Source: Candidatus Parcubacteria bacterium (GTDB lineage: Bacteria; Patescibacteriota; Saccharimonadia; UBA4664; JBIOIQ01). From it: a DNA stretch of 64,000 nt. Each line of letters begins with the position of its first letter. Position 1 is the first letter of the stretch. The DNA lies in assembly GCA_963718875.1 (NCBI GenBank), contig OY970378.1, positions 260,396 through 324,395 of the forward strand, given 5' to 3'. Positions 3,446 to 60,608 of the stretch are shown in pieces. Both the position numbers and the translations under genes were made by a program. The notes under the pieces were generated by a model. The model did not search any database and was not told the origin of the DNA. It saw only the letters and a program-made list of their open reading frames with translations.

Positions 3446-3931
3446 TTGCAAATGAAAAAAATATCTGTAGCCACAATTGTTCCAATTATAGCCATGGCGG
3501 TGGCTGGAGCTGGCGTATATGGTGTTAGTCGGGCGGTCGCCGACTCCAATGCTAATAAATCGACTATTGTGCAAGAAATTGCTGATACTTTTAAGCTTGA
3601 TAAGGCAAAAGTACAGGCAGTGTTTGATAAGCACAAAAACGAAGTCAGGGTGGATCACCAGGCTCGATATGAGGAGCGTTTGAATCAGGCTGTGAGTGAC
3701 AAGAAGTTGACCAGTGCTCAAAAAAAGGCAATTTTGGCTGAGCATAAAAAATTGCAGAGCCAAATGGAAGCAGCCCGTACAAGCGGTACTAATAAACGAG
3801 AAAATATGGAGAAAATTCGCTCAGAAGCCACTGATTGGGCCAAACAGAACGATATTGATGTTAAATGGCTGATGTTTGGTGGGGAGCGAATTCATGGTAA
3901 AGGGGTAAATACTGAAAATTTTTCTAAATAG
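3446..3931 (+). CDS. Secreted Lys-rich protein, unknown function
   Basis: N-terminal signal-peptide-like MKKISVATIVPIIAMAVAGAG; preferred over antisense ORF 3362..3763. Confidence 0.45.
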   Translation: MQMKKISVATIVPIIAMAVAGAGVYGVSRAVADSNANKSTIVQEIADTFKLDKAKVQAVFDKHKNEVRVDHQARYEERLNQAVSDKKLTSAQKKAILAEHKKLQSQMEAARTSGTNKRENMEKIRSEATDWAKQNDIDVKWLMFGGERIHGKGVNTENFSK

Positions 3932-4920
3932 TCGGCAATGTATCTAGTGATATATACAAGTCGCCCCCGCAAGGACGGCTTGTCCCTGGCGGGGGTTAAT
4001 TTTGGAGACGGAGTAGTGGAACTTGCGGAGTCTGGCAGTACTACCCAGAAGTTGCTGACTGGTCTTGGTCCGGACGACGGAATGTTGCGCAGCTCTCCGT
4101 CTACGACCATTTGAGTGGATCCGCCTCCATCTAGGTTGGCGGCGTCAGTGGCACCCAGTCTTAACATCAGGCTTGCTGCTTCATTGAGGCTCATACCGCT
4201 GCTCGCGCGTCCTTTGTCGACTGTGACGAAGATGATTTCTCCGGTTTGGGCGTTCCATCCCATCAAAGTTCGGGCTTGTCTGGATTCAGTGAAGATGGTG
4301 TGCTCTGAAATGGAGGTTTGTATGCCGTCTCGGAGTAGGCGGTAACTGGCCCCTAGGCTTTGAAAAGTCCCAGGTGGGATTTCTCCGTTTTCGCCGTAAC
4401 TAGGGCGGTTTGCTTTGTCGAGTGACACTTGGCTGTGATTGGTGACGGTGGGTCGGATGGGTTGGCCATCTGTAACAATTCCGCCAATCGGTATGCCGTT
4501 GTATAGGTGGATGTCCCCGTTGACCACTAGGAGCGCGTTTAGAGATTTGGCGATGTCGCTCGGCAGGGCCATGAAATGACCCTTGGAATCACGAGGAGCC
4601 AATATGGCCTTGATCTCTACTGCGGCATCTATAGGGATACGGGCGACGTTTATGACGTTCGCGGGATTCGTTTCGGTGATGGTTTGGTATGTCATGCTTG
4701 CTGGTAGCAAGGGAGCGACAGCGCGAGTAGTTGAGGTAGTTGGACTGATTGCGGAAGCCTCTGGCTCACCTATTCTGGATGAAGAGCCGAGAATTATTAT
4801 CAGGCATGCGACAAATGCCAGTCTGCGCATGACCCTCCTCTCTAGATTGTGATGTGCGCCGGTTTGGCTAATATTAGCATAAAGCCACGTAAGCATAAGG
4901 GCAACAATAAAAACACCCAT
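3892..4920 (-). CDS. Phosphodiester glycosidase family protein (NAGPA/DUF2233-like), secreted; GC-rich versus neighbours
   Basis: Motifs LVVNGDIHLYNG...GWNAQTGEIIFVTVDKG...ANLDGGGSTQMVVDG; signal peptide; GC-rich 3' hairpin at 3950-3990. Confidence 0.6.
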   Translation of the reverse strand: MGVFIVALMLTWLYANISQTGAHHNLERRVMRRLAFVACLIIILGSSSRIGEPEASAISPTTSTTRAVAPLLPASMTYQTITETNPANVINVARIPIDAAVEIKAILAPRDSKGHFMALPSDIAKSLNALLVVNGDIHLYNGIPIGGIVTDGQPIRPTVTNHSQVSLDKANRPSYGENGEIPPGTFQSLGASYRLLRDGIQTSISEHTIFTESRQARTLMGWNAQTGEIIFVTVDKGRASSGMSLNEAASLMLRLGATDAANLDGGGSTQMVVDGELRNIPSSGPRPVSNFWVVLPDSASSTTPSPKLTPARDKPSLRGRLVYITRYIADYLEKFSVFTPLP

Positions 4921-4955
4921 AGAATGGGTGTTTTTATTGTATGGGGTGGGGCGTT

Positions 4956-5681
4956 TTAAAACTTTTCTGGGTATTGTTTGACTATGGCGCTTGCCAGCGT
5001 ACTCATGAGGCTTTGAATATGCTTGGCTGCGGCTGCCTGGTCGGTGACTTCAAGGGTATAGTTTCCGGCTACGTGGTCGTCAATGACTTTGGCAGTCATG
5101 GCTACGTGGTCGCCAAAAGCTGACTCTAGAGTGGCTAGGGGCAGGTTGGGGTTAGCACCAGCAAGTAAAGCCGAGATGGGCTTGGTGTAGTTGGTAGCAA
5201 TATCGTTTAACGCAGCGGTTTTGTCGGCTTCTTTTTTGGCTTTGGCTGCCGTGGCGTAGTTTCCCAAAGCGTTTAAGTGGACATTCCAGATTTTTTGAAA
5301 CTCATCTTGAGTGGCTTGGCCGTAAACACTACCTATAGCAGCAGAAATCTCTGTTCCGTTAGCGGTAAGGGCTGCTTTTAGAACTGCAGCATCAGCTTTG
5401 CCGTCAAGGGCGGAATTGATTGCTTGGTTGGTTAAGTTCATATGGGTTGTTCCTAGAGCTACAAGAGTGGCACGGAGATCGGCAGATTTGGTAGTAGTGT
5501 CGGGGGTAGGTGCTGAGGGTGCCGGGGTGGAGGTGACGGTAGGCTCGGTTTGAGCTATGAGTTTGGCGGCGCCAAATCCTAGGGCTACTCCGATTACTCC
5601 TACAACTATTACAACGACAGTTCGTCCTCCTTTGGACGTATTTTGATCTACGTTATTGTCCATTTTATAACCACCTTTCAA
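4956..5681 (-). CDS. Membrane-anchored Ala/Thr/Pro-rich protein, unknown function
   Basis: N-terminal TM then TPAPSAPTPDTTT linker and Ala-rich domain. Confidence 0.45.
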   Translation of the reverse strand: MKGGYKMDNNVDQNTSKGGRTVVVIVVGVIGVALGFGAAKLIAQTEPTVTSTPAPSAPTPDTTTKSADLRATLVALGTTHMNLTNQAINSALDGKADAAVLKAALTANGTEISAAIGSVYGQATQDEFQKIWNVHLNALGNYATAAKAKKEADKTAALNDIATNYTKPISALLAGANPNLPLATLESAFGDHVAMTAKVIDDHVAGNYTLEVTDQAAAAKHIQSLMSTLASAIVKQYPEKF

Positions 5682-5875
5682 TTATGCATCATTTTAGCAT
5701 AAGAGCTTTATTTAAAACGATGCTTTCATTAGTTCACCTCAATTCATTACAGTCTATATCGCTGGGGACGTCAATATGCATGTCCATGTCTAGAGTCTAC
5801 TCGGCTTAAATAAGGGGTTTTAAAATAAAAAAACTTCGCTAAAAATTAGCGAAGCGAGAGTTAATAAGTTGAGGG

Positions 5876-5911
5876 CCGGGACGGCGACAGCAGATGCTGT
5901 CGCCGTCCCGG
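5876..5911. terminator. Perfect GC hairpin (CGGGACGGCGACAGC-AGAT-GCTGTCGCCGTCCCG) at 3' end of GC-rich island
   Basis: 15-bp perfect inverted repeat read directly. Confidence 0.55.
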
Positions 5912-5946
5912 AAGGGGGCGATGAAGGGACGTTGGGTGGAAGTCCG

Positions 5947-6258
5947 CTAGACGGACAGGAGGTTGCGGAGGGTGGCCCGGCTCATGTCTCCGATGGGGAT
6001 GCCGCCGAAAACCTGAGAGATCTCCCGGATGGTGATCAAGTAGACCTTCTCGTCGGTGCGGACCGAGAGCCCGATCCAGCTGGGCGTGCCGCGGCTGACG
6101 CAGCCGTCCATCACCTTGCTGTTGCGGATTGATGTGATCATGAGGTTCGTGATGACCTCCCGGGTGTCCGGGTCGTTGCTGTAGGCTCTCAACGTGTCGT
6201 CGTCCATGCTGACGACGAAGACCATGGGAGGGTTGGATTTGTCGGATATTGCCATGAC
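5947..6258 (-). CDS. Hypothetical protein on a GC-rich island (MAISDKSNPPMVFVV...)
   Basis: ORF in a visibly GC-rich segment 5.87-6.33 kb flanked by AT-rich DNA; start choice uncertain. Confidence 0.35.
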   Translation of the reverse strand, partial: VMAISDKSNPPMVFVVSMDDDTLRAYSNDPDTREVITNLMITSIRNSKVMDGCVSRGTPSWIGLSVRTDEKVYLITIREISQVFGGIPIGDMSRATLRNLLSV

Positions 6259-6420
6259 TGACTCCTTCTCTATGGGTCTAGGCGAGACTTCATCGCTGTG
6301 AATGATCAGCTTCTCGGATGAGTTATAGCCCACCCAAGAAAATCATTTTTTCATACTAACATATTAATTACTCTAAGTCAACTCTTTTTATCTGAACCGC
6401 TCTCATTCCCTCGCTCAAGC

Positions 6421-6480
6421 CTGTCATCCTGAAGAGAAAGGCCCCGCCTTGGCGGGGACATTTCTACCGTTCAGGATCTC
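6421..6480 (+). repeat. Hairpin repeat TGTCATCCTGAAGAGAAAG...TTCAGGATCTCT, copy 1 (left flank of polymerase module)
   Basis: ATCCTGAA / TTCAGGAT inverted arms enclosing a second GC hairpin; direct repeat with 8236-8290. Confidence 0.6.
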
Positions 6481-6682
6481 TCATCTAGATTAAGAGGCCC
6501 TGAAACAAGTTCAGGGTGACAATTTTGGAGGTCTTGGAGGCAAAGTGAGGGTGGCTCAGTCTTTTTATCACAAATTCAGGTTTAGTGACAAAGTCGTACT
6601 TCTCGTGGGGAAAGAAGTCTGACTTGTCTTGTGTTCGGTAATTGTTCGGTATATAATGAATACTCAAATCAAGAGGAGCGTG

Positions 6683-6946
6683 ATGCACGAAGCAGTTAAT
6701 GAACCGGTTGATGTTGTGGCTTCGTTTGTGCGCGGTCCCAAAAAAACCGTTAAGGTGCGCCCTCACATGCTGAAGTGGCAGGGCAAGCGGTACAAAGTTG
6801 ATACGTTTGGGTTGTACCATCCGGAGCGACGAGGGGCACAGTTATTCCATATATTTAGTTTTTCTTGTGGCTCGACGGCTTTTCGGGTGGAGCTAGATCC
6901 AGATACGTTGGGCTGGACTTTAACTCAAGTTTTTTACGGAGGTTAA
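6683..6946 (+). CDS. Small protein translationally coupled to the Y-family polymerase (possible YolD/UmuD-like accessory)
   Basis: RBS AGAGGAG before ATG 6683; its stop TAA 6944-6946 sits inside the RBS GGAGG of the polymerase gene. Confidence 0.4.
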   Translation: MHEAVNEPVDVVASFVRGPKKTVKVRPHMLKWQGKRYKVDTFGLYHPERRGAQLFHIFSFSCGSTAFRVELDPDTLGWTLTQVFYGG

Positions 6947-10643: not shown

Positions 10644-10738
10644 AATTGAATCAAATTGACAGTTGTAATGTACTGCTGTATATCTAAACCACGAGTACCT
10701 ACAAGTCAAAGGAGAGCCTAACCGATAACAACCTGATA

Positions 10739-11368
10739 TTGGGTTATGAGATGTGCAGTGCTTGTGGATGGAAAAACATCTTCCAAGCTGACAATAGGGA
10801 GCTGCGTCCACTGCTCATTTCTAGCTTGAAGTGGGGTAGTTACATTTGCCCCGCTTGTCACACTGATCAAGCAACCTCACGCATGGTTCTGTCTAGTCCA
10901 GTGCCTTACAGTGCGTTGTTCGATGACGAACAGGAGGGAGTGATGACTGTCTTAGAAACATCGGGTGATAAGATGACCCGAATGACCGTTTGCCAGCATC
11001 TACGGGCCTTGGCCCACTGGTTGGCTCCTTGGGATGAGGAAACGGGGGGACTTATCGCCGTCATTAACGTATTTTACCTCGGCATTCTCTTGATAGCTCT
11101 AGCGTTCAGAAATTGGGGGCTGGTAGAGGCTATGGGGGGTCTCTTCTGGTTATGTGCCCAGTTCTACCTGATACTTTTCTGCCTGCCATTCGCGGGTTTG
11201 ATCGCCATTGGGCGGATCTTGAACGGCAAGGCAGTCTGGGGGAATTTGAGGCTGGCCTGGCGCGAAGCTGGGGAAGAGGCCCTGTTCTCCAACCTCAGGC
11301 GAGAACTTGCTCGCAGGCGCTATGAACGGCGCAGTGAGGCATGCATGAGGAGGCACATTGACCAATGA
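10739..11368 (+). CDS. Zn-ribbon (CxxC..CxxC) membrane protein, GC-shifted
   Basis: CSACGW...CPACHTD then hydrophobic segments; hairpin terminator 11396-11440. Confidence 0.4.
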   Translation: MGYEMCSACGWKNIFQADNRELRPLLISSLKWGSYICPACHTDQATSRMVLSSPVPYSALFDDEQEGVMTVLETSGDKMTRMTVCQHLRALAHWLAPWDEETGGLIAVINVFYLGILLIALAFRNWGLVEAMGGLFWLCAQFYLILFCLPFAGLIAIGRILNGKAVWGNLRLAWREAGEEALFSNLRRELARRRYERRSEACMRRHIDQ

Positions 11369-11644
11369 ACGGAGATGAAGGTGCCTATTAAACCCCGATG
11401 AACGCGACGACAGCAGTCCCGTTTATCGGGGTCGTCGTTTGTTATTGGAACTTTATGATGGGTTTGCCAACGTAGAGCAGAGCATGAATTAGGATGAATG
11501 ATTGTCAAACGGGCACTGTTCCAAATATGGTGGGGATTTAGCTTGGGTTTTTGACCAGGTGTACATGATTTGGTTGTTCTAGATCTGTAAAATTCTAATC
11601 TGGTGCGGTAAGGCAATACGGTAAGTTAGCTTGTAAGTTCCCAT

Positions 11645-12214
11645 ATGAGACCAATTAAGGAGTTGCCCATGTTCAGTACGAGCAGAAGTACCCCGTGGAA
11701 GGCCTTCACGGCTTTCCTGATCAAGGCCAAGCTGTTCTTCTACGGAGCGGCTTGCGCCATCACTATCACCGGGTCGATCCAGAAGATGCGTACCCGTACG
11801 AGCCCCGCGAGCTCGATGCAGGTGCATGCTGAGATGCTGCGGAAGTCGTGGCTGACCCTCGTCCAGACCGAGAAGATCCCGCCGAGCAGTTTGATCTATC
11901 GCACGGCGATTTCAGCCCTGAACGCCATCGACGGGCTCGTAGCGGCGATCCCGCAACGGACGTACGACGAGGCACCATTCGCCTCGATCTCGACCCTCGA
12001 TGCCAGTCGATCCGGGCATGGCGACATCATGGTGATCGACACGACTGATCAGGCGCTGAACCTCCTCTACGAGGTGGCCGATCGACTGCCGGAGGATCAG
12101 CGCCAGACCTTCCGAGGGAGCCTGAACGCACTCGCCGAGAGCCTGCACGCAGTCAATGCGGCGTCTTCAGCCGGTGTCCACGACAGCGACCGGGTACCTG
12201 CAGCCGTCACGTAG
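11645..12214 (+). CDS. Hypothetical protein on a GC-rich segment
   Basis: GC-rich ORF; its antisense ORFs judged spurious; followed by hairpin CTGCCCCGCGC...GCGGGGCAG at 12226-12262. Confidence 0.4.
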   Translation: MRPIKELPMFSTSRSTPWKAFTAFLIKAKLFFYGAACAITITGSIQKMRTRTSPASSMQVHAEMLRKSWLTLVQTEKIPPSSLIYRTAISALNAIDGLVAAIPQRTYDEAPFASISTLDASRSGHGDIMVIDTTDQALNLLYEVADRLPEDQRQTFRGSLNALAESLHAVNAASSAGVHDSDRVPAAVT

Positions 12215-12369
12215 ATCCACCCTCTGCACCAAACCTCTGCCCCGCGCTTCGATTCAAGGAGTGCGGGGCAGTTCCCTTTTGTTACCCAATTATTATTGTG
12301 CTTATGCTTAAGTGGGTGTATGTTGAAACTAGCCAACAGGAGTTCCTACAAGTTCCGAAAGGGGGTGCC

Positions 12370-12849
12370 ATGAGCACCACAAGCATAGCAGACGTGATTT
12401 GCTCTGGATGTGGTTTCCCGAACGGTGTTTTCGATAACAACACCGTGATTGATCGCACCGTTGACCGGCCGGAGCTTGAGCACCTTCATGTGACATGCGA
12501 TTGGTGTTGCAGGTGCATACCGGTTTGGACCAACAAGCGACTGCTGTCATTAGCCGAAGAGCTCCATTTTCGTGCGGTGACGTGGTTCTTTCTTCGCCGC
12601 TGGGTACAGGAGGGCTACGAATCATTGCAGTGGGTGCATAGGCTAGGTCCAGACCAGGAAGAGGCTATTGCGGCTTCTCGGGAGGAATTGAGCCTATGCG
12701 AATCGACCCAATGGGCTTTGGACAGAATGAGAGGTGGAGAGGATTACAAGGGTTGTGATCTCCCTCCAGTTTGGGCTTGTGACTGTGGCAGTTCAGCCGG
12801 CTGTCAACCCCAACTGATCGCTGTTGGCCGCGCGCCCCTCGAGGTTTGA
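12370..12849 (+). CDS. Cys-rich Zn-ribbon protein
   Basis: CSGCGFPNG...CDWCCRC; start chosen at MSTTSIADV. Confidence 0.35.
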   Translation: MSTTSIADVICSGCGFPNGVFDNNTVIDRTVDRPELEHLHVTCDWCCRCIPVWTNKRLLSLAEELHFRAVTWFFLRRWVQEGYESLQWVHRLGPDQEEAIAASREELSLCESTQWALDRMRGGEDYKGCDLPPVWACDCGSSAGCQPQLIAVGRAPLEV

Positions 12850-12962
12850 GGGGCGCAAGCCTTTTAGAGGCAATTTTTTATGCAACTAACCAGCAACCAA
12901 CTGTATAATCAAAAGCGATTTATAATGATCCAAGTGACCTCTTGGCATATATGGATGACTGG

Positions 12963-18401: not shown

Positions 18402-19142
18402 CTAAGTGATCTTGTTAAGGCGAAGTAAGCGTACCACTTCTGAAACTAAAGGTTCTCTGGCGCTTTTTGAAAAGTCGTGATCGGCATTCTTGATAGAGCT
18501 GTATGGGATGCTTTTTATAGGAGCTTGCTTTCCTAGCACGTTGTCTGCGTCTGCTAAAACCACATTAACTTGGTTACTTTTAGATAATTCAAGGTACAGT
18601 TCCTCGGGCTTTGTGGCTTTAAAATCACACCAGTAGTCGGGTCCGACTGTGGTGATAGAACCATCAGAGCGCTGCAAGATAGATTCACCGTCTATTTTCA
18701 AAACTGATCCAGGTCGTGACCATCCCGGAGTGGATGCAAATTTGACAGCGGCTGGAGAGGTGATTGGAGGAGCAAGTAGAATAACTTGACTGCTGGTTGG
18801 ACTAGTTTTAGCCACGACGATACAGCCTTGAGAGTGACCTATATATACGAGCTTGGTGATGCCGAAATTTTGCCGGACGTAGTCAACAACCTTGTTTAAC
18901 CGGTTCGCTTGAGCTGAAAACGGGAGGGCTGCCGTCACATCGTCTGTAATTACTGAAAAATCTCCTCTTACCGATAATGTTGAACTACAAATTTGGTTCT
19001 CAATGGCGGTAAACAACCCGCGCGAGTCTCGTTTTACGCCAAATCCATGTACGAATATAATGCCCGTGGTTGCATTGTTACTACCAGTTATCTCGACGTC
19101 AAAAGGCTGATTATCTCCTAGTGTTACAATTTTCGTTGTCAT
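18402..19142 (-). CDS. Alpha/beta hydrolase (esterase/lipase-like)
   Basis: IFVHGFG...IGHSQGCIVV nucleophile elbow. Confidence 0.6.
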   Translation of the reverse strand: MTTKIVTLGDNQPFDVEITGSNNATTGIIFVHGFGVKRDSRGLFTAIENQICSSTLSVRGDFSVITDDVTAALPFSAQANRLNKVVDYVRQNFGITKLVYIGHSQGCIVVAKTSPTSSQVILLAPPITSPAAVKFASTPGWSRPGSVLKIDGESILQRSDGSITTVGPDYWCDFKATKPEELYLELSKSNQVNVVLADADNVLGKQAPIKSIPYSSIKNADHDFSKSAREPLVSEVVRLLRLNKIT

Positions 19143-19198
19143 ACAAACATGATGAGTTAATTTATAGGGTTCTGCAAACTACTCAAGGATTTATGAAC

Positions 19199-19250: not shown

Positions 19251-19266
19251 CCATCTGATCGATGGG

Positions 19267-42208: not shown

Positions 42209-42214
42209 ACGGCT

Positions 42215-43377: not shown

Positions 43378-43427
43378 TGACGAAAGCTCCCAAACAGGCG
43401 AACTTTCGTTGGCTGCTTGAGAGCTGA

Positions 43428-44848: not shown

Positions 44849-45226
44849 CTAGTTCGGATTAAAGATGCGCTTGATGAGCCCGACTGCCCAGAAGGGTGGG
44901 CTTAGCAGAAGACTCAGCCAGATCAATCCCTCCCACCAGACCATCTTTACATCTTCTTCGTAATCGTAAACCAGCTCGGTGAGTACGCCCATGCCGACGA
45001 GCCAGCCGCAGATGAAGAGCAGAAAGGCGAAGATGGCGATTCCATCTCCGGTGCTCAGGTTCTGCTTTCCCGATGGGGAAAAGACTTCGAACCTCTTGCT
45101 CAGTTTCATTCCGCACATGCCGCTGCCTGAGCTGGATGGGGCAGGACATGTGGTTTGGTCTTGTTCGTCGACGGATATGAGTCCGTGGGTGTTGCACTCG
45201 CGAACCGGCCAGCTACGTACTTGCAT
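44849..45226 (-). CDS. WPVREC-THGLISVDE paralog family (copy 2) with C-terminal TM extension
   Basis: Shared N-terminal 35 aa with 31419..31724; promoter TTGACT-16 bp-TATTAT about 60 bp upstream. Confidence 0.5.
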   Translation of the reverse strand: MQVRSWPVRECNTHGLISVDEQDQTTCPAPSSSGSGMCGMKLSKRFEVFSPSGKQNLSTGDGIAIFAFLLFICGWLVGMGVLTELVYDYEEDVKMVWWEGLIWLSLLLSPPFWAVGLIKRIFNPN

Positions 45227-45377
45227 TTGGATTCTCCCGTAGTAGGGCAGAGCGCTTAGATGCGCTTCGCTTGATGACTTGCAGAGATTACGTATGATAA
45301 TAGCATTTTTTTATAAAAAGTCAATCGAAATTAAATAAACAAACAAAAAAGAGGCTTCGTAAAGCCTCAATAATTGC

Positions 45378-45406
45378 ATGGCGGGAGCTTATTGATGATT
45401 TTCGAA
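45378..45406 (+). repeat. A repeat copy (left half)
   Basis: TGGCGGGAGCTTATTGATGATTTTCGAAC. Confidence 0.7.
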
Positions 45407-45497
45407 CTACAGCTGCATTATAAAATGACGATGCCCCCAAAGATGCCTTGCGGCGTCCGAGGGGGCAGTTCGTCAGTCGAGCGAAGGAGCGGCCTTA

Positions 45498-45794
45498 TCA
45501 AGAGGCAATGACGGTGTAGTGGATGCGATGCCAGAGGCCTGTTTTGTAGGGCAGGATGCCCGCATCGTTCAGGTAGAGGCGCTCGGGGGAGCCGGGGTGA
45601 CCAACTTCTCTGACCATGACGAACGGCGCTTCTTCGGTTTCTACGCCGCTGACGATTTCGAACTTCATGCCGCCGTGGAATCGCGTGTCATGTCGTCGGA
45701 TGATGGTTCCTGGTGTGAGGAGGTAGAGATCGTCGGGCCCGAGAGCACCGGGGTGTTGCGGTCGGACGTCGGTAAGATCGGGGTCGGCTCTCAT
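45498..45794 (-). CDS. Hypothetical 98-aa cassette protein
   Basis: GC-rich. Confidence 0.35.
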   Translation of the reverse strand: MRADPDLTDVRPQHPGALGPDDLYLLTPGTIIRRHDTRFHGGMKFEIVSGVETEEAPFVMVREVGHPGSPERLYLNDAGILPYKTGLWHRIHYTVIAS

Positions 45795-45928
45795 CGTTGA
45801 CTTTTATTCGGCTGACGGATGTACTGATGCATTTTCGCACCATTAATGTTGATTATAGCATAAGCATGATAATAAGTCAATAATCTTGATTACATAACAA
45901 AAATAGGCAAGACCTTAATAAGTATTAT

Positions 45929-45980
45929 TGCGGGAGCCTGTTTGCCGACAGGCAGGCTAATTAACGATTTTCGAACCGTT
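45929..45980 (+). repeat. A repeat copy interrupted by a 20-bp hairpin insert (GCGGGAGC-CTGTTTGCCGACAGGCAGG-CTAATTAACGATTTTCGAACCGTT)
   Basis: Read directly. Confidence 0.65.
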
Positions 45981-46041
45981 TACTCGGTTTAATAACGGAA
46001 AGAGCCCCCAGGCAGAGGGATTTCCGTATTGCTTGAGGGCT

Positions 46042-46278
46042 TCAATTGGAAGGTCGCTTGATGCGCCGTACGAATTCATCGACATCGTCTTGATGTATAC
46101 GTGTCGCATGGTGGTTGCCGTCATCGATCTTGAATCGCAAGCCCCTCCCTAGGGCTGGCCTACCCGCTATGCCTTCGATGAAATAGCTGACATACTGCGT
46201 CTGCCGACCAACTAGATCTGATACCACCATCAGTGGCACATAGCCATCGGCGTCCGGTGAGTTATCGAAGATGGGCAT
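46042..46278 (-). CDS. Hypothetical 78-aa cassette protein
   Basis: ORF only. Confidence 0.3.
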   Translation of the reverse strand: MPIFDNSPDADGYVPLMVVSDLVGRQTQYVSYFIEGIAGRPALGRGLRFKIDDGNHHATRIHQDDVDEFVRRIKRPSN

Positions 46279-46290
46279 CTTTGGCCAGAT

Positions 46291-46605
46291 TCAATTAGTT
46301 TTCTCGGCTGCAGTCTCGATGTTGACTTTGGCTTCCATGACAGCGACTTGCCCCATGTACTTGGGGATCATTGCGATGGCAGCCTTTCCGGCACGTGCTT
46401 TGGCAGCCTCTTCCGTCTCAGCCGAGAGACTGAAGTCAAACCTGACCTCACAGAAGACGTTTGGGTCTGGTTCGATGAAGATTTCCAAACCCCAGAAGTC
46501 GTAATCATGGAGCAGGGTTTGACGGATTTCGGCCTCGTGTTGAGGAAGCAGGGTTGTAGCCGGACCTACCAAGGACAGGGTGACGTGGGCTTTCCAGTCT
46601 TGCAT
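46291..46605 (-). CDS. Hypothetical 104-aa cassette protein (start MQDWKAHV, RBS AAGGAG)
   Basis: GC-rich. Confidence 0.35.
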   Translation of the reverse strand: MQDWKAHVTLSLVGPATTLLPQHEAEIRQTLLHDYDFWGLEIFIEPDPNVFCEVRFDFSLSAETEEAAKARAGKAAIAMIPKYMGQVAVMEAKVNIETAAEKTN

Positions 46606-46639
46606 TGCGACTCCTTTTGTCGGGGGTTCCACCGGATGA

Positions 46640-46762
46640 AAGCGCACCGGTCCACGCATTCAGAACGAATTGATAACTATGCTACTAAAATACGCTTATT
46701 GCAACCATAAGCGGCAAAGCTTATCGAGAAAGTATTGACAAAGCATAAGTATTGTGCTAGTA
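46640..46762. promoter_or_regulatory. Module B copy with promoter TTGACA(46734)-17 bp-TAGTAT(46757)
   Basis: Shares CAACGCATTCAGAACGAATTGA(C/T)AACTAT with 39252-39280. Confidence 0.55.
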
Positions 46763-46886
46763 TTGTTGGATTCAATCGTTAAGGTTGAAATGTTCCTTAC
46801 AACTTCCTTTCTTGGTGTTTGTCGACTTGGTCACTAACAGCTTTAGCTGCTAGATCGACAGACATCTCAACGAAAGGAAAACTGTC

Positions 46887-47495
46887 ATGACACTGGCCGT
46901 CCAGATCTTCATCCACTCCAACCCCTTTGTCGGGATCATTTCCGACGTGGCATTCAACCGCATCGTTTCACGAGCGGTTTACGCAAGGGCCGAGGACATC
47001 CAGAAGCGCTACATGGCGGGCGAATACCCCCGCGATTCCTTCAGCTTCACCATACTCGACCCCACAGCTCCGGCCTCAACACCGAGCGAGGACGCCATCA
47101 TGGTGCTTGCCCTCATCGGGCCAGAGGGAGCAGACTTCGCTCCCAACGGCCTTGCCAAGGCAATCGAACACCGGGACTCGGGTACGGAGTGTGGTGTGCT
47201 GGTGTACACCCAGAAGCACCGGCTGCCCAGTGGAAGCTTCCGCTACGGGTTCTCCGTCTGCCTCGACGGCACCTACGTCGGCGGCAGTGGCGAAACCGAA
47301 CTTCAGGACCGCTACCAGTGCACCCTTCTCGCCGCGGATTTCAACCTCCGCATCGACACGACCATCAAGGAGTGGGAAGAGGTTCACGGCCCCGGTCGCT
47401 GGTTCAGCGAAGACAACAAGCCGGGCAGACGCATCACAGACGCGCTTGTATCGGTCATGTCAAGCCACCCCATGAGCCGTCCTGGCACGTCATGA
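46887..47495 (+). CDS. Hypothetical 202-aa cassette protein
   Basis: GC-rich; antisense ORFs rejected. Confidence 0.4.
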   Translation: MTLAVQIFIHSNPFVGIISDVAFNRIVSRAVYARAEDIQKRYMAGEYPRDSFSFTILDPTAPASTPSEDAIMVLALIGPEGADFAPNGLAKAIEHRDSGTECGVLVYTQKHRLPSGSFRYGFSVCLDGTYVGGSGETELQDRYQCTLLAADFNLRIDTTIKEWEEVHGPGRWFSEDNKPGRRITDALVSVMSSHPMSRPGTS

Positions 47496-47507
47496 CGTAA
47501 GCAGCAC

Positions 47508-47630
47508 AGCCTCGCCGTTCACCCTAGGGTGGGCGGCGGGGCCGATTCCCAAGCCCGTTAACGCAAGTTAATTGGCTTAGTAGTCGAAAGACTGATTTAC
47601 ATTCCCACAACCGCTCTGAAAGGAGCAACC
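47508..47630 (+). repeat. Module E hairpin plus promoter/leader module (ii) (...TTAACGCAAGTTAATTGGCTTAGTAGTCGAAAGACTGATTTACATTCCCACAACCGCTCTGAAAGGAG) running into the next start codon
   Basis: Near-identical copy at 48467-48590; related copy at 59640-59736. Confidence 0.65.
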
Positions 47631-47996
47631 ATGCTGAATTCTGTCGCCCGAGCCTCCCAGGCACTGGCAATCTGGCGCATCGCCGAAACCGGAGTCACCA
47701 ATGAGACGGACAACCGGGCCGATCTGAAAGGAGCGGTAGTACAAGCCCATCAGCAGTTCTTGCAGGCGGCCTACGACGTCGCCTTTGAACTGGTCCCCTT
47801 GCTTCTGAAGCACGGGGAAGTAGTCGCCAAGACTACAGTTCGCTACTCGGCTACTCCGGCCAACGGCGGCTTCGTACTGCAGGCGATGTCCGAAGACGAT
47901 CCCGGCATGCCGCTGAATCCCAACTCGCACGTCGAGCGGATACTCCAGCTCATGGTCGACCTGACGGAGCTGCTCGAGATCCTAGGGGTAGAGTAA
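47631..47996 (+). CDS. Hypothetical 121-aa cassette protein
   Basis: Stop overlaps start of next ORF (ATGA-type coupling). Confidence 0.4.
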   Translation: MLNSVARASQALAIWRIAETGVTNETDNRADLKGAVVQAHQQFLQAAYDVAFELVPLLLKHGEVVAKTTVRYSATPANGGFVLQAMSEDDPGMPLNPNSHVERILQLMVDLTELLEILGVE

Positions 47997-48454
47997 TGGA
48001 GTGCCCCAATTGTGGAGAGTCTGGACAGCCCGGTCATCACTGGTTGGCTGGGCAAGGATACGTCTGCTTCAACAAAGATGGGGGAGACGACGTTCCTCCT
48101 CCTGATATCCAGCTCTCGAAAGGAGCGGTAATGCCAGACACCGATGAGGTCCGTGTTTCGGATCTCCACCAGAGCTGTACTTTCAACGTCATCTACCATC
48201 CCACGAGCAACAGTCCGCTCTGTAACAAGCCCGCTACGTCGTTGGTGATGGTGACCGACGCTCCGCGCGTAAGCCAGCCGCCCAAGTGGCGGTGCGACGA
48301 GCACGAGGGCATGGTCAGCAGAGACGAGCGAGGAGAAGTTGTCACAGCCATGCCGCGTGAGCTGGCGGATTCGTTGACAGATCGCAGGCTTGGCAAGCCT
48401 GGCAACCCCATCCGGGCTTGGCTCGACATGCCGCCCCACGATGAGCCGTACTGA
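47996..48454 (+). CDS. Zn-ribbon (CPNCGESG...) cassette protein
   Basis: N-terminal CxxC plus downstream Cys/His. Confidence 0.4.
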   Translation: MECPNCGESGQPGHHWLAGQGYVCFNKDGGDDVPPPDIQLSKGAVMPDTDEVRVSDLHQSCTFNVIYHPTSNSPLCNKPATSLVMVTDAPRVSQPPKWRCDEHEGMVSRDERGEVVTAMPRELADSLTDRRLGKPGNPIRAWLDMPPHDEPY

Positions 48455-48466
48455 TCGCTTGTAGCA

Positions 48467-48590
48467 AGCCTCGCCGTTCACCTTCTGGGTGGGCGGCGGG
48501 GCCGATTCCCAAGTCTGTTAACGCAAGTTAATTGGCTTAGTAGTCGAAAGACTGATTTACATTCCCACAACCGCTCTCGAAAGGAGCATC
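48467..48590 (+). repeat. Module E plus promoter/leader module (ii), copy
   Basis: As 47508-47630. Confidence 0.65.
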
Positions 48591-49070
48591 ATGCGAACTC
48601 TGTCAAGTTTGGAGTACAGCGAAGCCAGGCTGCTTCTCGAGTACATCGTCGATCAAGCTGGAGATGCCAAGGTTGCAATCTGCGTAGTGGACGCAACCGG
48701 CAAGCTTTTGGCTGCGGCTTCAATCAACGGCGCCGCCTCTCACTACATGACCTTCGCCCTGGCCAAAGCCATCACCGGTCTTCACGAAGAGGATGACACG
48801 GCTGGTTTCCGCCACGATCAGCCTGACCACAGCAGTTGGGTCCCGAAGGAAGAAGGCCAAGGCTGGTCCGAGGGGGAACTAATTCTTGCCGCGCAGCTCA
48901 GCCCAGGCTTCTGCGGCTGGGCAGGGGGCTCAGTCGTAATAGATCCTTCCGAAGAGCTTCACATCTGTGGCTCCATCGGTGTCAGCGGTTTGATGGAGTT
49001 GGAGGATCAAGAGTTGGCGGACAAGCTGCCTGCCCGATTGGTAGCTTTGATACTTACATCGCTATCGCAG
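48591..49070 (+). CDS. GlcG/HbpS-like DUF336 protein (putative heme/cofactor-binding); listed ORF continues to 49232 by reading through module E, so the true 3' end is uncertain
   Basis: A..DAKVAICVVDATGKLLAAASINGAA...FALAKAITG pattern typical of DUF336. Confidence 0.5.
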
Positions 49071-49073
49071 CAT

Positions 49074-49324
49074 AGCCTCGCCGTTCACCTCCGGGTGGGC
49101 GGCGGGGCCGATTCCCAAGTTAGTTATAAAGTTAACTGGTTTAGGAATCGAAAAAAGCTGGGCTCGACTGGATACGGGCTTGACTACGTCAACCCTGGCT
49201 GCCCGATCGGTCGCAGTGTTCCCTCGGGCTAGTCGAACCGGCAGAAGATCGCCGGTTCGAACATTCGCTAGCGCTCATTAAGAAAAGCCGACAACCACAA
49301 GGGTCATCGGCTTTTCTTGGCGGG
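49074..49324 (+). repeat. tRNA-proximal copy of the composite block (E hairpin, tail (i), 190-bp segment with inverted partial tRNA copy, hairpin) ending in the tRNA-Asp 3' end
   Basis: Duplicate of 43066-43338. Confidence 0.7.
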
Positions 49325-49394
49325 CTCGACCGGATTCGAACCGGCGATCTTCTCCGTGACAGGGAGACATGTTGGGCCTCTACACCACGAGCCC
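49318..49394 (-). tRNA. tRNA-Asp (anticodon GTC), GC-rich
   Basis: Cloverleaf read by hand: acceptor GGGCTCG, anticodon arm TCTCC-CTGTCAC-GGAGA, T-arm GCCGG-TTCGAAT-CCGGT, CCA encoded. Confidence 0.8.
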
Positions 49395-50297: not shown

Positions 50298-50373
50298 TGG
50301 AGCCACCTATCGGATTTGAACCGATGACCTTTGCTTTACGAAAGCACTGCTCTACCAACTGAGCTAAGGTGGC
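50298..50373 (-). tRNA. tRNA-Thr (anticodon CGT)
   Basis: Acceptor GCCACCT/AGGTGGC, D-arm GCTCAGTTGGTAGAGC, anticodon loop TTCGTAA, T-arm ATCGG-TTCAAAT-CCGAT, CCA encoded. Confidence 0.75.
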
Positions 50374-50630
50374 TCGTCGAAAACGCATTTCAGACTACAT
50401 AATGTGCCCAAAGCATATTATTCCGCCTTGCACGCGTTTCCTCCTCTAAACAAGTCAAACGGCCGGGCGGCCTGATTTGACTTGTTTTTGGACGCATTAC
50501 TAGAATTTACGAAGAGAAGGCTATATTAGCATATCAAGCTCATGTAAGTAACGCCACAAAGAGAAGCGCCCCTCGAAAGTCCCGGCAAGAGGATTTTCGA
50601 GGGGCGAGGGGACGGGTTGGGCGGTGCTTG

Positions 50631-50984
50631 TCAGCCGCGGGGGCAGTTGGGTGTGTTGGCGGGGCTATTGCTCCAATTCCGGTAGTCGGGACTGGCCGGT
50701 TGGCCGGCAGCGGCCAGGGCGCGGTTGATGGCGGCCTGGACCAGAGCGTAGAAGCGGAGGCTGGCTTCGAACGCAGGCTGGTTGGTGCCCTCGAGGTTGC
50801 AGGTGCTTGCCACGATGGTTTGCTCGAGAGAGTAGGCCCCGGCAAACCCGGACGGGGCCACGATGGGGGCGGGAGGACCGCCATTGGGATCGCCACCAGC
50901 CCAGGCGGGCGTGCCCAGCGAGAGGACGGCAGTGACAGTGATGGCTGTGGCGGCGATGAAACCGCGGATCAGAGAACGCCTCAT
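50631..50984 (-). CDS. Small secreted protein on a GC-rich island
   Basis: Signal peptide MRRSLIRGFIAATAITVTAVLSLGTPAWA; GC-rich; hairpin CCCCTCGAAA...TTTCGAGGGG at 3' end. Confidence 0.45.
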   Translation of the reverse strand: MRRSLIRGFIAATAITVTAVLSLGTPAWAGGDPNGGPPAPIVAPSGFAGAYSLEQTIVASTCNLEGTNQPAFEASLRFYALVQAAINRALAAAGQPASPDYRNWSNSPANTPNCPRG

Positions 50985-51194
50985 GGAAGGTACCTTTCGG
51001 TCGGCGTCACATTGTTGTGACGTTTGTTATACCCAGCAGGTTACCAAAAGTTTCAATAATTATCTAAGTTGAGCGTAAAACCTATCAGGTTGTGGTGCGG
51101 AAGTAAGTAAAAAACTTAGAGACTCGTCTCCTGGAGGCAGGCTTGTTCGACGGAAATATTTAACCACAACTGGTATTATTAAGTTTGAAACTTT

Positions 51195-51749
51195 TTGGCT
51201 GGACATGGATATAAAGGGTGTATGGACGAACTAGAGACTATAAAACGCGTTAAGGGTGGGGACGATGCAAGCTACGCTGAGCTTATTGAAGCCTACCAGC
51301 GCGGGCTGATTCGTTACTGCTATACCATAACTAAGGATATTGATGTGGCCGAAGACATAGCTCAGGAGGCATTCATAAAAGCCTACGAACAGATAGAAAA
51401 GTATGATCCTAAGTACAAGTTTTCAACTTGGTTATACAAAATTGCTCATAATGGGGCTCTCAAAAGCTTGCGCAAGGCTCCAGTCCTGCCATTCGATGAA
51501 GAGGTAGAGATCCCGTTTGAAGACCAAACGCAGGATAAAATTGATATTGAGGTCAGAGAGTCAACGGTTCGGGAAGCTGTCTCCTCTTTGCCCCAGCATT
51601 ATCAGATGGCCGTTAATTTGCACTACTGGGAGGACAAAGATTATACGGAAATAGCTGAAATTATGAGTGTGCCCGCTACAACCATTAAGACCTGGCTGTA
51701 TCGGGCAAGGTTGGCTGTAAAGGAGAAGTGCTATGAGCTCGCTCGATAA
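51195..51749 (+). CDS. ECF-type sigma-70 family RNA polymerase sigma factor
   Basis: Region 2 (YLIRYCY.., DIAQEAFIKAY) and region 4 HTH (TEIAEIMSVPATTIKTWLYRAR). Confidence 0.75.
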   Translation: MAGHGYKGCMDELETIKRVKGGDDASYAELIEAYQRGLIRYCYTITKDIDVAEDIAQEAFIKAYEQIEKYDPKYKFSTWLYKIAHNGALKSLRKAPVLPFDEEVEIPFEDQTQDKIDIEVRESTVREAVSSLPQHYQMAVNLHYWEDKDYTEIAEIMSVPATTIKTWLYRARLAVKEKCYELAR

Positions 51750-53940: not shown

Positions 53941-54016
53941 GTGACTGATTCGCAACCGGCGTTACTTCAATAGCATCACTATGACAAGAGAACAGTCCCA
54001 GGTAATTTGAGGCTGT

Positions 54017-54041
54017 TTTCTTGGAGCGAGTGACGGGAATG
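54017..54041 (+). repeat. 25-bp duplicate of the tRNA-Gly 3' end (TTTTCTTGGAGCGAGTGACGGGAAT), an att-like direct repeat
   Basis: Identical to 54183-54207 inside and abutting the tRNA. Confidence 0.65.
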
Positions 54042-54187
54042 TGTCTGGCGCCACCTCCCTGTGGTGCTCGGTATGATCTCAAGCAAGCTTGGCTCAACCT
54101 GCGCTCCTCGTCCATCGGACCTAAAGGTCCGCTTCCCGCACCCAGCTTAGCAAGAAAATACCCCGAGACTAGCTCAGGGTATTTTCT

Positions 54188-54263
54188 TGGAGCGAGTGAC
54201 GGGAATCGAACCCGTGACTCGACCTTGGGAAGGTCGCATTTTACCCCTAAACTACACTCGCGC
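54188..54263 (-). tRNA. tRNA-Gly (anticodon CCC)
   Basis: Acceptor GCGCGAG, D-loop TAGTTTAGGGGTA, anticodon arm CGACC-TTCCCAA-GGTCG, T-arm ACGGG-TTCGATT-CCCGT, CCA. Confidence 0.75.
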
Positions 54264-59020: not shown

Positions 59021-59467
59021 CTAACTGTACTTTTTAAGCTCCCGCTTTATCTCGGCGTTTGAGCTTAGTGAGGCGTGGGAGCTAAGGAAGCGCAAGAAAG
59101 CCGGCATGTGGTAGTGCTTAAGAGTGTAGAGAATAATACTTGTGACCTCAGCTTTGGATACTACTGTTTTTTGTAGATCTAGAATTTTAGCCTCAATAGT
59201 GTCTGTAACGGCCTCGACAGTGTCGGGGTCTGCTTGGTTGTGCTCAAAGCTAGCATAAATATCACTAAACAAGCGAGAACGGTTGTAGGGTCGTATGAGC
59301 CCGCTGGAGCCGCTTATGCTTAAAAACCCTAAATCTACCTGTTCGTAAGTAGTAAAGCTCTTAGAACAGCTCTGACAGCGTCTACGACGCCATATTTGGC
59401 TACCAAAGCGCGTGGCGCGGGAGTTAAAGACCTGGCTATTGCTTTCACGGCAAAAAGGACATTTCAT
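59021..59467 (-). CDS. nrdR: Transcriptional repressor NrdR
   Basis: MKCPFCRESNSQVFNSRATRFGSQIWRRRRCQSCSKSFTTYE Zn-ribbon plus ATP-cone. Confidence 0.8.
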   Translation of the reverse strand: MKCPFCRESNSQVFNSRATRFGSQIWRRRRCQSCSKSFTTYEQVDLGFLSISGSSGLIRPYNRSRLFSDIYASFEHNQADPDTVEAVTDTIEAKILDLQKTVVSKAEVTSIILYTLKHYHMPAFLRFLSSHASLSSNAEIKRELKKYS

Positions 59468-59639
59468 GACAACATGTTGTCATATGACTATTAAAAAGTC
59501 GAGTGGAAAACTTTAGTGAAAATGGGGATAAAGGGGATGACATCGAGTAATTATTGATTTTAAGGTCGTTCGATACTATAATAAGCCGACGCCTTGGCTG
59601 CAAGTCGAGGGGAACCAAATCGTCACAGATCAGCCCAGC

Positions 59640-59736
59640 CCTGTACCGATGTATTGGTACAGGACCGATTCCTAAAGTTGGCTTAGTAACCGAAATGTCC
59701 GATTTACAACTCAACTCTCTCGAAAGGAGAGCAGCA
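59640..59736 (+). promoter_or_regulatory. Hairpin (CCTGTACCGATGTATTGGTACAGG) plus promoter/leader module (ii) variant
   Basis: Alignable with 47540-47630 (GGCTTAGTA..CGAAA...GATTTACA....CTCTCGAAAGGAG). Confidence 0.5.
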
Positions 59737-60057
59737 ATGGATCTAGCTGTGAGATTGGGACTCGGAGTGGCCGTAACGCTTTGTGTTCTGACTTTCATCG
59801 TGAGCGTTGCAAAAATTTTCCTGGCGGACGACCCGGTGGGCGCAGACGCTGCTTTGTCAAAGGCATGCGGAAGCCTGGGGTTGAGTTTGATCTTTACCTC
59901 GGGGATCATGCTTAAGATTCATCAGTATTACTGGATGCTGATTCTGCTTGCCCTAGCCGGACTTGCTCATGGTGCATGGTGGTGTATTCGTAGGCAGCGC
60001 ATCAGGATGGGCGAAGCAACCCCGCTGCGAGAATGGTTTCGTCGCCCGACACTTTGA
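59737..60057 (+). CDS. Small GC-rich membrane protein
   Basis: RBS AAAGGAGAG; 2-3 TM. Confidence 0.4.
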   Translation: MDLAVRLGLGVAVTLCVLTFIVSVAKIFLADDPVGADAALSKACGSLGLSLIFTSGIMLKIHQYYWMLILLALAGLAHGAWWCIRRQRIRMGEATPLREWFRRPTL

Positions 60058-60104
60058 TACTGGCTTGATTGAAAACCTACGATCTCTTTCGAAAGGAGAG
60101 TATC

Positions 60105-60503
60105 TTGATTCCGAGCAGAGATGCTGTTGATGGCTTCATGATAGCCACGTCGTTGTTAGTGCCGTTTGTTACCTGCTTGGGGCTGGGCCTGTCCCGTCGC
60201 TTCCGGTTCGGGTTTCGGGTGGCGAGCGTAGCTGTGTTTCAGCTTGGTTGCGTTGGTGTCATTCTGTGGCTACTGACCCGGTTTGGTTGGAGTCAGACTT
60301 GGGAGGCCGCAAGACATGTCCGCCAGGTAAACGTGGTTGGGGGGTGGGTCTTGAACATATTGTTCTATATATGCCTGGCCTCACCCTTACTCTCGCTGGG
60401 TTTCTTGTGGGACTGTTTCCGGTACTCTCGAGGTCTCGCCGTTGCTCCTTTTGGCTTGAGGATTTACGTTGTCAAGCCAATCTATCGTAAAGGAGTGGTC
60501 TAG
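60105..60503 (+). CDS. Small GC-rich membrane protein; same leader as previous gene
   Basis: Leader CTCTTTCGAAAGGAGAG then TTG start; 3-4 TM. Confidence 0.35.
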   Translation: MIPSRDAVDGFMIATSLLVPFVTCLGLGLSRRFRFGFRVASVAVFQLGCVGVILWLLTRFGWSQTWEAARHVRQVNVVGGWVLNILFYICLASPLLSLGFLWDCFRYSRGLAVAPFGLRIYVVKPIYRKGVV

Positions 60504-60608
60504 CGTGGCAGAATGATCGAGAGTGCGCTTAGAATCGGCCTATGTCGGCTAACTAGTCCCCGTAAAATACCTTGCATTAGTGCGGGGTCCCTACGGGGAC
60601 TTCGTACT

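Follow-up and report, generated by a model that had tools for sequence, protein, structure and literature searches.

GC-rich gene islets beside a tRNA-Asp array in a probable Saccharibacteria-type genome: a possible extended island of miniature expression cassettes

We analysed a 64,000-nucleotide (nt) stretch of contig OY970378.1 (positions 260,396 to 324,395; the window below, numbered from its first letter). It carries an array of small gene units that ends at a tRNA-Asp gene and, outside the array, eight short GC-rich islands, here called solo islands. We give an even chance to the reading that these form an extended flexible island, anchored on tRNA-Asp and built of miniature expression cassettes, together with a few unrelated GC-rich singletons. 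Three of the solo islands share sequence modules with the array. The initial annotation of this DNA had seen in the islands a cassette system that was genome-wide; this is not shown, as every module-sharing island lies at 19.2-28.1 kb, within 12 kb of the array's distal junction repeat (31318). Bacteria of the candidate phyla radiation (CPR) such as Saccharibacteria have tiny genomes and depend on hosts, and their gain and turnover of accessory genes are poorly known. The window suggests that much of the flexible content of this region arrives as miniature, ready-to-express cassettes stacked at a tRNA, and that a later reshuffling makes use of the regulatory modules that they have in common.

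The islands stand apart from the core genes in base composition. The mean GC content of the window is 47.9%, with backbone stretches at 0.37-0.46 and islands at 0.54-0.63, and 200-nt windows with at least 54% GC are present in all eight named islands. Trinucleotide distance to the Pfam-supported backbone, expressed as a z-score, was 5.1 for 4001-4800, 5.8 for 5601-6800, 10.5 for 10801-12800, 8.8 for 19001-20000, 4.2 for 20801-21600, 6.5 for 26201-28200, 8.2 for 50401-51200 and 3.5 for 59801-60600; a handful of unnamed regions also reach z = 3-4. GC at third codon positions (GC3) was compared with that of 31 backbone genes (0.451 +/- 0.041). The solo open reading frames (ORFs) differ from these (Mann-Whitney p = 1.6e-6), and six of them have GC3 values of 0.73-0.90 (z = 6.7-10.9). 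The earlier description of GC-rich islands of one to three genes outside the array therefore holds, and the islands are compositionally foreign: the GC and k-mer deviation check that it had proposed, run here with 200-nt GC windows and trinucleotides, showed a composition that is not uniform, with all eight islands as outliers. The array itself is not uniformly GC-rich, because three of its genes (32141-33343, 34964-35527 and 35681-37201) have backbone-like GC3 values of 0.37-0.45. These encode a PAS/sensor-like protein, a small protein without a significant family match and a glycoside-hydrolase-like protein.

Shared modules were traced by blastn of the window against itself and by nhmmer profiles built for each module, and the two methods agree. 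Module D at 19183-19257 recurs as predicted in the array, at 41267-41342 (94% identity, E = 1.7e-21). Module B at 21522-21588 matches 27306-27373, 39269-39335 and 37941-38004, module G at 26816-26878 matches 38395-38457, a promoter/leader module at 27377-27462 matches 42221-42307, and module E at 27991-28074 matches four array copies. These are the only array-type modules outside the array. Module F (20987-21078 versus 26288-26379, 87% identity) is found only in the two solo islands that flank the hem operon. All the modules that had been named at 21.0-21.6 kb (F and B) and upstream of hemC (F, G, B and E) are thus present, and all except F match the array. A 150-bp duplicate links the 27-kb cassette to the array, as had been noticed: 26885-27034 and 37216-37365 are 97% identical.

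The claim that the islands carry array-type modules stands for those at 19.2, 21.0-21.6 and 26.3-28.1 kb and is not confirmed for those at 3.9-6.3, 10.7-12.9, 50.5-51.0 and 59.5-60.6 kb. The nhmmer profiles gave no significant match at the first three of these other places, and the hairpin at 59640-59695 that had been likened to module E scores just E = 0.08. The non-module islets at 5.9, 10.7-12.9 and 50.6 kb and the unit at 19.3 kb all have a consensus promoter, a Shine-Dalgarno sequence, a GC3-rich ORF and a GC hairpin. The likeness of the remaining islands to the array is limited to composition and to a gene anatomy that is generic to bacterial genes.

The modules are regulatory parts (promoters, leaders and terminator hairpins) placed around unrelated ORFs. 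An all-against-all blastp of the window ORFs found almost no paralogy beyond that produced by the DNA repeats, and the sets of modules around unrelated ORFs vary in combination. Module B contains a promoter-like TTGAGC-17-TATACT on the minus strand with an imperfect palindrome before it; a promoter scan located it at 21531-21559 and also found the promoter at 19.8 kb. The top promoter match of the region, on the plus strand at 27391-27419, is TTGACA-17-TAAAAT with a TG extension (11/12). Modules D, F and G lie directly after minus-strand stop codons and E after plus-strand stops, and all four fold as strong stem-loops. Six or more unrelated sequence families are represented among the hairpins placed as terminators. 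A ribosome-binding-site motif, YTCGAAAGGAGA, is shared: it was counted 4 times where 0.6 would be expected.

Another motif, TGCTYRTGCTTRMA, occurs nine times against 0.42 expected. Promoter module B contains it, and in three junctions of the array it comes immediately behind the CCA. It is also found where the third ORF of the 10.7-12.9 kb island starts (the motif TGCTTATGCTTAAG being at 12299) and within nrdR. A role as -35/UP element or as binding site of a protein is conceivable.

The array is punctuated by a junction repeat, D1. Its 17-nt core, ATTAACGATTTTCGAAC, is present in nine copies, all on one strand and all within 31.3-46.0 kb, where 0.16 would be expected; with up to three mismatches allowed, it is absent from all solo islands and from everywhere else in the window. 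The units between D1 cores measure 0.57-5.6 kb. On the strand of the tRNA, D1 takes the form of a GC hairpin followed by TTTATGAGGCTAAAACC-GTTCGAAAATCGTTAATMAGC, and in five of the nine copies TCCCGCCA and a T-tailed hairpin come after this. Five copies finish in ...AGCTCCCGCCA, the 3' end of tRNA-Asp (CCCGCCA), and then a terminator hairpin. The 3' end of the tRNA-Asp gene itself, AGCCCGCCA, matches AGCTCCCGCCA, and the gene terminates in ...GGTTCGAATCCGGTCGAGCCCGCCA. The D1 copy at 43334 carries the same downstream terminator as tRNA-Asp, and a 279-bp stretch at 43062-43338 repeats 49070-49324, with divergence starting exactly inside TTGGCGGG. A 12-nt copy of the tRNA-Asp 3' end lies at 41835-41846. 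Direct repeats of an attachment (att) core and partial tRNA copies are thus found between the units of the array, which abuts the 3' end of the tRNA. The D1 copies look like att junctions left by successive integrations at tRNA-Asp.

Two further observations concern the array. A 19-20-nt piece of tRNA-Asp, from the variable arm to the T-loop, is inverted just downstream of the tRNA (49243-49261) and recurs at 43257-43276, in the 279-bp repeat of 43.1-43.3 kb. A ParB-like gene at 39575-40390, with ParB N-terminal and helix-turn-helix domains, is the only partition- or plasmid-type gene found in the array.

A tenth, degenerate D1 copy lies outside the array, over the stop codon and last 8 codons of hemH. 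It agrees with the 32-nt repeat at 31318 in 24 of 32 positions, a score reached by none of 300 Markov-simulated 45-kb sequences, and it shares CCCACCTAT, which follows the core only in the 31318 copy. The tail of hemH that lies under this relic is not conserved in the ferrochelatases of two relatives (L025 and L026). The nhmmer profiles found no module in the window beyond tRNA-Asp or below 19 kb. Because module matches are confined to the neighbourhood of the array and a degenerate D1 lies at the hemH stop, the module-sharing islands are more readily taken for an older extension of the tRNA-Asp island than for independent landings. By the grammar of the array, the hem operon and all the distal sequence would lie inside this older, decayed part.

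The process that we envisage is as follows. A small genome, probably of Saccharimonadia (CPR), would have acquired the islets horizontally as accessory genes. Each would be a self-contained unit in which a GC3-rich ORFan follows an AT-rich promoter of sigma-70 type with its leader and is closed by a GC-rich stem-loop. The cassette pool would be shuttled by tRNA-targeting integrative elements, and these would have piled up in the window at the 3' end of tRNA-Asp, with a recombinase presumably acting in trans. Each array unit would end in D1, a mimic of the tRNA 3' end, and each new arrival would restore the tRNA and push older units outward. The islands at 19.2, 21.0-21.6 and 26.3-28.1 kb would then be the older distal part of the tRNA-Asp island and not independent landings, their junction repeats having decayed to the one relic at the hemH stop and recombination between the promoter and terminator modules that they share having rearranged their cassettes. 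The GC3-rich singletons at 5.9, 11.6 and 50.6 kb may be separate acquisitions from the same kind of pool, without the shared parts.

Several observations weigh against this picture. D1 is not a true tRNA half, as it has just TTCGAA and AGC.CCCGCCA in common with tRNA-Asp, and module F has no copy in the array by either self-blastn or nhmmer. The genes by which a tRNA-targeting element is recognised were not found in the window: Pfam/NCBIfam scans of ~70 of its ORFs, including all array ORFs of at least 80 amino acids (aa), showed no recombinase and no replication module. The hemH relic is one single match of 75%. The relatives L025 and L026 keep the hem operon and lack the flanking islets, which would favour the picture, but they are too distant (60-76% amino-acid identity) and too rearranged in gene order for a strict comparison of presence and absence. 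In a related contig described below (L031), the core genes of the putative vehicle are low in GC (GC3 0.43-0.49), so that the vehicle does not explain the GC richness of the cargo. The assignment of the organism is based on the nearest named homologues of one protein, and makes it probably a Saccharibacteria-type CPR bacterium: the closest named homologues of hemC are annotated as Candidatus Saccharimonadia, Paceibacterota or Patescibacteria (51-58% identity). A scan of genome contigs with hemC found no close relative, the top match being 51% identical.

The only close relative of the cassettes that we found is a JGI soil-type metagenome contig of 1,239 nt (L023). It contains ORF 26903-27277 at 92% nucleotide identity in the order 3' end of array ORF 38498-38998 (93%), homologue of ORF 26903-27277, module G, D1 and AT-rich sequence. 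In metagenome contigs the D1 pattern was found in L023/L024 only, and it had no match in viral contigs. Because L023 holds the 26.9-kb cassette in a different, array-type order, cassettes must move or reshuffle; they are real and, in an evolutionary sense, mobile. Strains thus differ in cassette order, and the natural context of the 26.9-kb cassette is, as far as contig order tells, an array. L023 and the truncated relic at 37216-37365 together suggest that the cassette moved, or was rearranged, out of the array to the 26.9-kb site.

The same evidence can be read as independent copying out, in which array cassettes were relocated to the backbone by homologous or illegitimate recombination at shared modules, perhaps with natural transformation, so that the pool is colonising the chromosome outside the tRNA site. 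We consider this possible, if on balance doubtful. A full copy of ORF 26903-27277 lies outside the array and a truncated one inside, L023 keeps the cassette in array context, the modules are differently combined around unrelated ORFs, and the two B...F units are equally placed, ~30-40 nt upstream of the start of a backbone gene. However, all module-sharing islands are confined to 12 kb beside the array, no target duplications or terminal repeats are visible at the island edges, and the relic at hemH has the orientation of the array repeats.

The 139-aa ORF at 27546-27965 gives a wider view of the cargo. Its family has 24 matches, at 29-45% identity, among 1.84 billion representative proteins, and we could examine its context in five contigs. 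These amount to three or four different loci; part of L031 is present again in L032, and L029 and L030 have one and the same family protein. The GC3 of the homologue is 0.65-0.81 in four of the five contigs, L033 not being scored, while neighbouring genes have ~0.34-0.50 in L027, L028 and L031 and up to ~0.6 in L029. In L027 the tRNA-Ala 3' end has two partial copies, and the homologue lies beyond them, ~550 nt downstream of tRNA-Ala. L031 has four cargo ORFs with GC3 0.65-0.78, of which the homologue is one; it lies ~5.7 kb from a large serine recombinase that abuts tRNA-His, in a contig with an AAA_25 gene. In L029 it lies ~5.9 kb from a serine recombinase next to tRNA-His; the tRNA cluster there is split by insertions, and a duplicated tRNA-Arg 3' end is nearby. 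Both large serine recombinase genes run on the strand opposite tRNA-His and terminate within its 3' end or right up against it (L029 7763-9432, L031 135-1735); they are mutually just 23% identical and their contigs are unrelated. The structure of the family was modelled confidently (pLDDT 86.4), and the model matched no known fold.

Upstream of the family lies a leader of ~130 nt (window 27420-27545; L027 3822-3940; L028 100-209; L031 7270-7409). In the 37 nt that precede the ATG its conservation is 92%, whereas the coding sequence has an amino-acid identity of 43%, and the leader had no match in Rfam. In an RNAalifold prediction, a CUCCUU block pairs with the Shine-Dalgarno sequence AAGGAG around a long hairpin. 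A second copy of the first 86 nt of the leader, at 42221-42307, precedes an unrelated ORF. Related contigs have AACTGCAAYAAGGAG or GCAAGGAG behind the cassette coding sequence. This is the leader block CTCCTTA..TTGCAGTT in inverted copy, which makes an inverted repeat of leader and 3' end, with the ORF in between; in the window, hairpin E takes that place.

These loci bring to mind an undescribed cassette-capture system of Saccharibacteria-type CPR bacteria, a proposal that we put forward tentatively and hold to be rather unlikely. Its recombinase-less single-gene cassettes, of 0.6-2 kb, would each have their own promoter, structured leader and terminator and a pseudo-tRNA att end (D1), would be inserted serially at tRNA 3' ends by a recombinase acting in trans, and would have a GC3 far above that of host and vehicle. 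The recombinase might be of the kind of the large serine recombinases beside tRNA-His in the related contigs, and the GC3 of the ORFs might be held high by a dedicated reservoir or by biased recombination. Such a system would be a functional analogue of integrons anchored on tRNAs, in a lineage with very small genomes.

The composition of the cargo matches neither the host nor the carrier element, and a GC3 signature that persists across deep divergence and across carriers needs an unsampled GC-rich reservoir or a biased process. GC richness might not mark foreign origin at all. A local process, such as GC-biased gene conversion in a hyper-recombining pool or selection on mRNA, would account for homologues that are just 29-45% identical and yet GC3-rich across contigs, mostly beside lower-GC neighbours, for the contrast between core and cargo genes in L031, and for promoters and leaders that are AT-rich and far better conserved than the coding sequences. 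We nevertheless think it unlikely. The array cargo that is not GC-rich (the three genes with backbone-like GC3) speaks against it, and repeated recent import from an unsampled GC-rich reservoir gives the same pattern.

Saccharibacteria live as epibionts, and their GC-rich genes could in principle be captured directly from high-GC, actinobacterial host cells. A GC3 of up to 0.9, an HbpS-like haem-degrading protein encoded in the array, and the Ala/Gly/Pro-rich ORF 50631-50984 with an N-terminus that by eye resembles a signal peptide would fit such capture, but we judge it very unlikely. The initial annotation had proposed to look for best matches from high-GC taxa; direct capture from such hosts is not supported, because searches with the ORFs gave no such homologues. 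A tblastn search with the 12 solo ORFs gave no match in 50,697 phage and 72,556 plasmid records. The 5.8 billion protein clusters that were searched contain no homologue of ORF 50631-50984, viral contigs gave no match to the 139-aa ORF, and Pfam, PHROG and PADLOC gave no match for solo ORFs except NAGPA at 3892-4920. The islet ORFs are ORFans or members of tiny families known only from metagenomes. The members of the 139-aa family with resolved context are all in contigs of modest GC, several beside tRNAs, and the cassettes have AT-rich consensus promoters of sigma-70 type and conserved leaders that such contigs share.

That the GC hairpins are attC sites, with cassettes captured by an integron integrase, can hardly be credited: the array does resemble integrons and clusters of attC sites lacking integron integrases in its small, mostly single-ORF units with structured repeats between them, no recombinase inside units, a recurring site, an order that varies by strain and many ORFans, but Pfam and NCBIfam found no IntI or other tyrosine recombinase domain among the ~70 window ORFs scanned, no attI or attC features were seen, the hairpins are of unrelated families and placed as terminators, and D1, the only punctuating repeat, is not an inverted repeat, perfect or imperfect, and ends in the 3' end of the tRNA that anchors the array. 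At the unit boundaries no R''-L''/L'-R' arrangement with a GTTRRRY core was seen, by inspection only. The cassettes are also not promoterless and of one orientation, as they have their own promoters (that at 27391-27419 lies inside a unit) and ORFs on both strands.

The closest analogue of the extended tRNA-Asp island is the accretion of integrative elements at tRNAs that shapes the islands of Prochlorococcus (tycheposons) (bioRxiv 10.1101/2020.12.28.424599). Both have a streamlined genome with a flexible island beside a tRNA and partial-tRNA-like att remnants between units; in both, as we read the array, arrivals push older units out, degenerate remnants lie further out and the cargo is mostly of unknown function; and the related locus L031 has a tyrosine-free large-serine-recombinase vehicle and a replication-type gene. 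Unlike tycheposon islands, the units here are only 0.57-5.6 kb, often with one ORF, and those in the window include none with a recombinase or a module for replication. A conserved pseudo-tRNA end, in place of a plain tRNA copy, forms the junction repeat, the ORFs each have their own promoter, leader and terminator module, and the cargo is strongly GC3-rich relative to host and vehicle.

Cis-mobilizable elements (CIMEs) lack an integrase, have att ends, can lie in tandem at one tRNA site and need a recombinase in trans. The array is like them in its integrase-less units that keep att-type ends in tandem at one tRNA, but CIMEs are usually decayed remnants of integrative and conjugative or integrative and mobilizable elements of many kb, whereas these are minimal cassettes with mix-and-match modules. 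The dif/pdif modules of Acinetobacter plasmids are small, Xer-dependent modules whose recombinase is encoded elsewhere. They too are small gene modules bounded by a short conserved site, but D1, by inspection, has no 11-6-11 XerC/XerD-type architecture, its copies all point the same way, and the array lies on the chromosome, linked to a tRNA. Miniature inverted-repeat transposable elements and insertion sequences were rejected, with no bracketing inverted repeats, no flanking duplications seen and no transposase domain found.

If the extended-cassette reading holds across genomes, the D1 junction, the module families and the GC3 contrast provide a searchable grammar for a flexible gene pool and a handle on exchanged small proteins, which may mediate interaction with the host, and a haem operon would lie inside or beside a flexible region. 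If it fails, the locus is an ordinary tRNA-linked genomic island.

Table 1. Islands, array and neighbouring features; positions refer to the window unless a related contig is named
Feature	Position	Strand	Details
NAGPA-domain gene, weak case	3892-4920	minus	mild GC3, 0.52; k-mer outlier; no module, no GC hairpin
Solo unit without array module	5876-6381	minus	promoter TTGACT-17-TAGTAT 6353-6381; Shine-Dalgarno; ORF 5947-6255, 102 aa, GC3 0.90
Three consecutive promoter-ORF-hairpin units without array module	10656-12856	plus	ORFs 10751-11368 (start also given as 10739; zinc ribbon and transmembrane segments; mild GC3, 0.60), 11669-12214 (start also given as 11645; GC3 0.78), 12370-12849 (start also given as 12298; Cys-rich; mild GC3, 0.55); hairpins 11393-11431, 12237-12271, 12832-12856
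Module-sharing unit	19183-19811	minus	promoter TTGACT-17-TACTAT 19783-19811; ORF 19267-19719, 150-aa membrane protein, GC3 0.89; terminator module D 19183-19257
Module-sharing unit adjoining hemH	20987-21588	minus	promoter module B 21522-21588; module F 20987-21078
Degenerate D1 copy (tenth)	21751-21782	plus as listed	same strand as array D1; 24/32 versus 31318 copy
hemC-hemD-hemQ-hemE-hemH operon	21758-26257	minus	complete-looking, coproporphyrin-type, chlorite-dismutase-like HemQ
Composite island directly upstream of hemC	26288-28075	both	F 26288-26379 with hairpin 26295-26334; small minus-strand ORFs 26335-26514, ~26590-26750; G hairpin 26816-26878; ORF 26903-27277(-), 124 aa, GC3 0.73; promoter module B 27306-27373(-); promoter 27391-27419(+), leader to 27545; ORF 27546-27965(+), 139 aa, GC3 0.73; double hairpin E 27991-28074
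Array	31318-49394	minus	ends at tRNA-Asp, abutting its 3' end
D1 core starts	31328, 32121, 33404, 34885, 40529, 42188, 43344, 45391, 45960
Truncated cassette copy in array	37216-37365	minus	last 44 codons and 18 nt of ORF 26903-27277, 97%
tRNA-Asp(gtc)	49318-49394	minus
tRNA-Thr	50298-50373	minus
Solo unit without array module	50568-50984	minus	ORF 50631-50984, 117 aa, GC 0.675, GC3 0.78; hairpin 50568-50605
tRNA-Gly(ccc)	54188-54261	minus
Weak case	59554-60503	plus	promoter TTGATT-17-TATAAT 59554-59582; hairpin 59640-59663 with E-like tail; two small membrane ORFs, 59554-60057 (mild GC3, 0.52) and 60069-60503 (mild GC3, 0.61)
Motif TGCTYRTGCTTRMA	12299, 21560, 27344, 32092, 34841, 37975, 39306, 42159, 59311
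Inverted leader copies, related contigs	L027 ~4364-4400; L028 ~642-680; L031 5560-5590, 6189-6215, 7830-7860

The solo islands differ in detail (Table 1). At 3.94-4.93 kb a GC hairpin had been reported with the NAGPA gene; the hairpin there (4905-4939) is AT-rich and overlaps the annotated NAGPA start codon. The neighbouring gene at 4956-5681 has a 38%-identical homologue in L025. The hairpin at 5876-5911 is a perfect 16-bp GC stem (-40.8 kcal/mol, z = -7.6), next to the ORF with the most extreme GC3 (z = 10.9). In the island adjoining hemH, ~440 nt of GC-rich sequence with shifts in coding phase lie between modules B and F; module F there contains a shared 14-codon C-terminus and the hairpin 20996-21031, and ends 38 nt upstream of the start of a mauE-like gene. 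The 161-aa ORF 21034-21519 is probably a decayed coding sequence, because it lacks a GC3 signal and the phase of its GC content changes from one part to another. The 50.6-kb unit lies upstream (on the 5' side) of tRNA-Thr. No inverted-repeat pair and no partial tRNA copy was found at any solo island, and no flanking duplications or terminal repeats were visible at the edges of those inspected.

In sample ERR12037361, independent contigs from short reads have gene tables that agree in order with the window at 6.5-19.2 kb, 21.0-24.4 kb and ~47.6-48.5 kb and reproduce the islets, so that the islets are not assembly chimeras. An independent Logan contig gene table lists the same three ORFs at 10.7-12.9 kb in unchanged order. 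Judged by their gene tables, the ERR12037361 contigs end near modules D, F and E.

The hem operon of this probable Saccharibacteria-type genome has islets on both flanks and the D1 relic at its end. The weak island at 59.6-60.5 kb is adjoined by a gene for a 23S rRNA intervening-sequence protein (60609-61058). An Rfam scan gave the three tRNAs as the only matches at gathering scores, and no further relevant match in the window up to E = 5. At the tRNA-Gly(ccc) gene, the last 19 nt and an upstream hairpin are duplicated 166 nt away (53985-54040 versus 54151-54206), with the 19-nt copy of the 3' end at 54022-54040. This duplication resembles the trace that a very small insertion would leave, here at a second tRNA.

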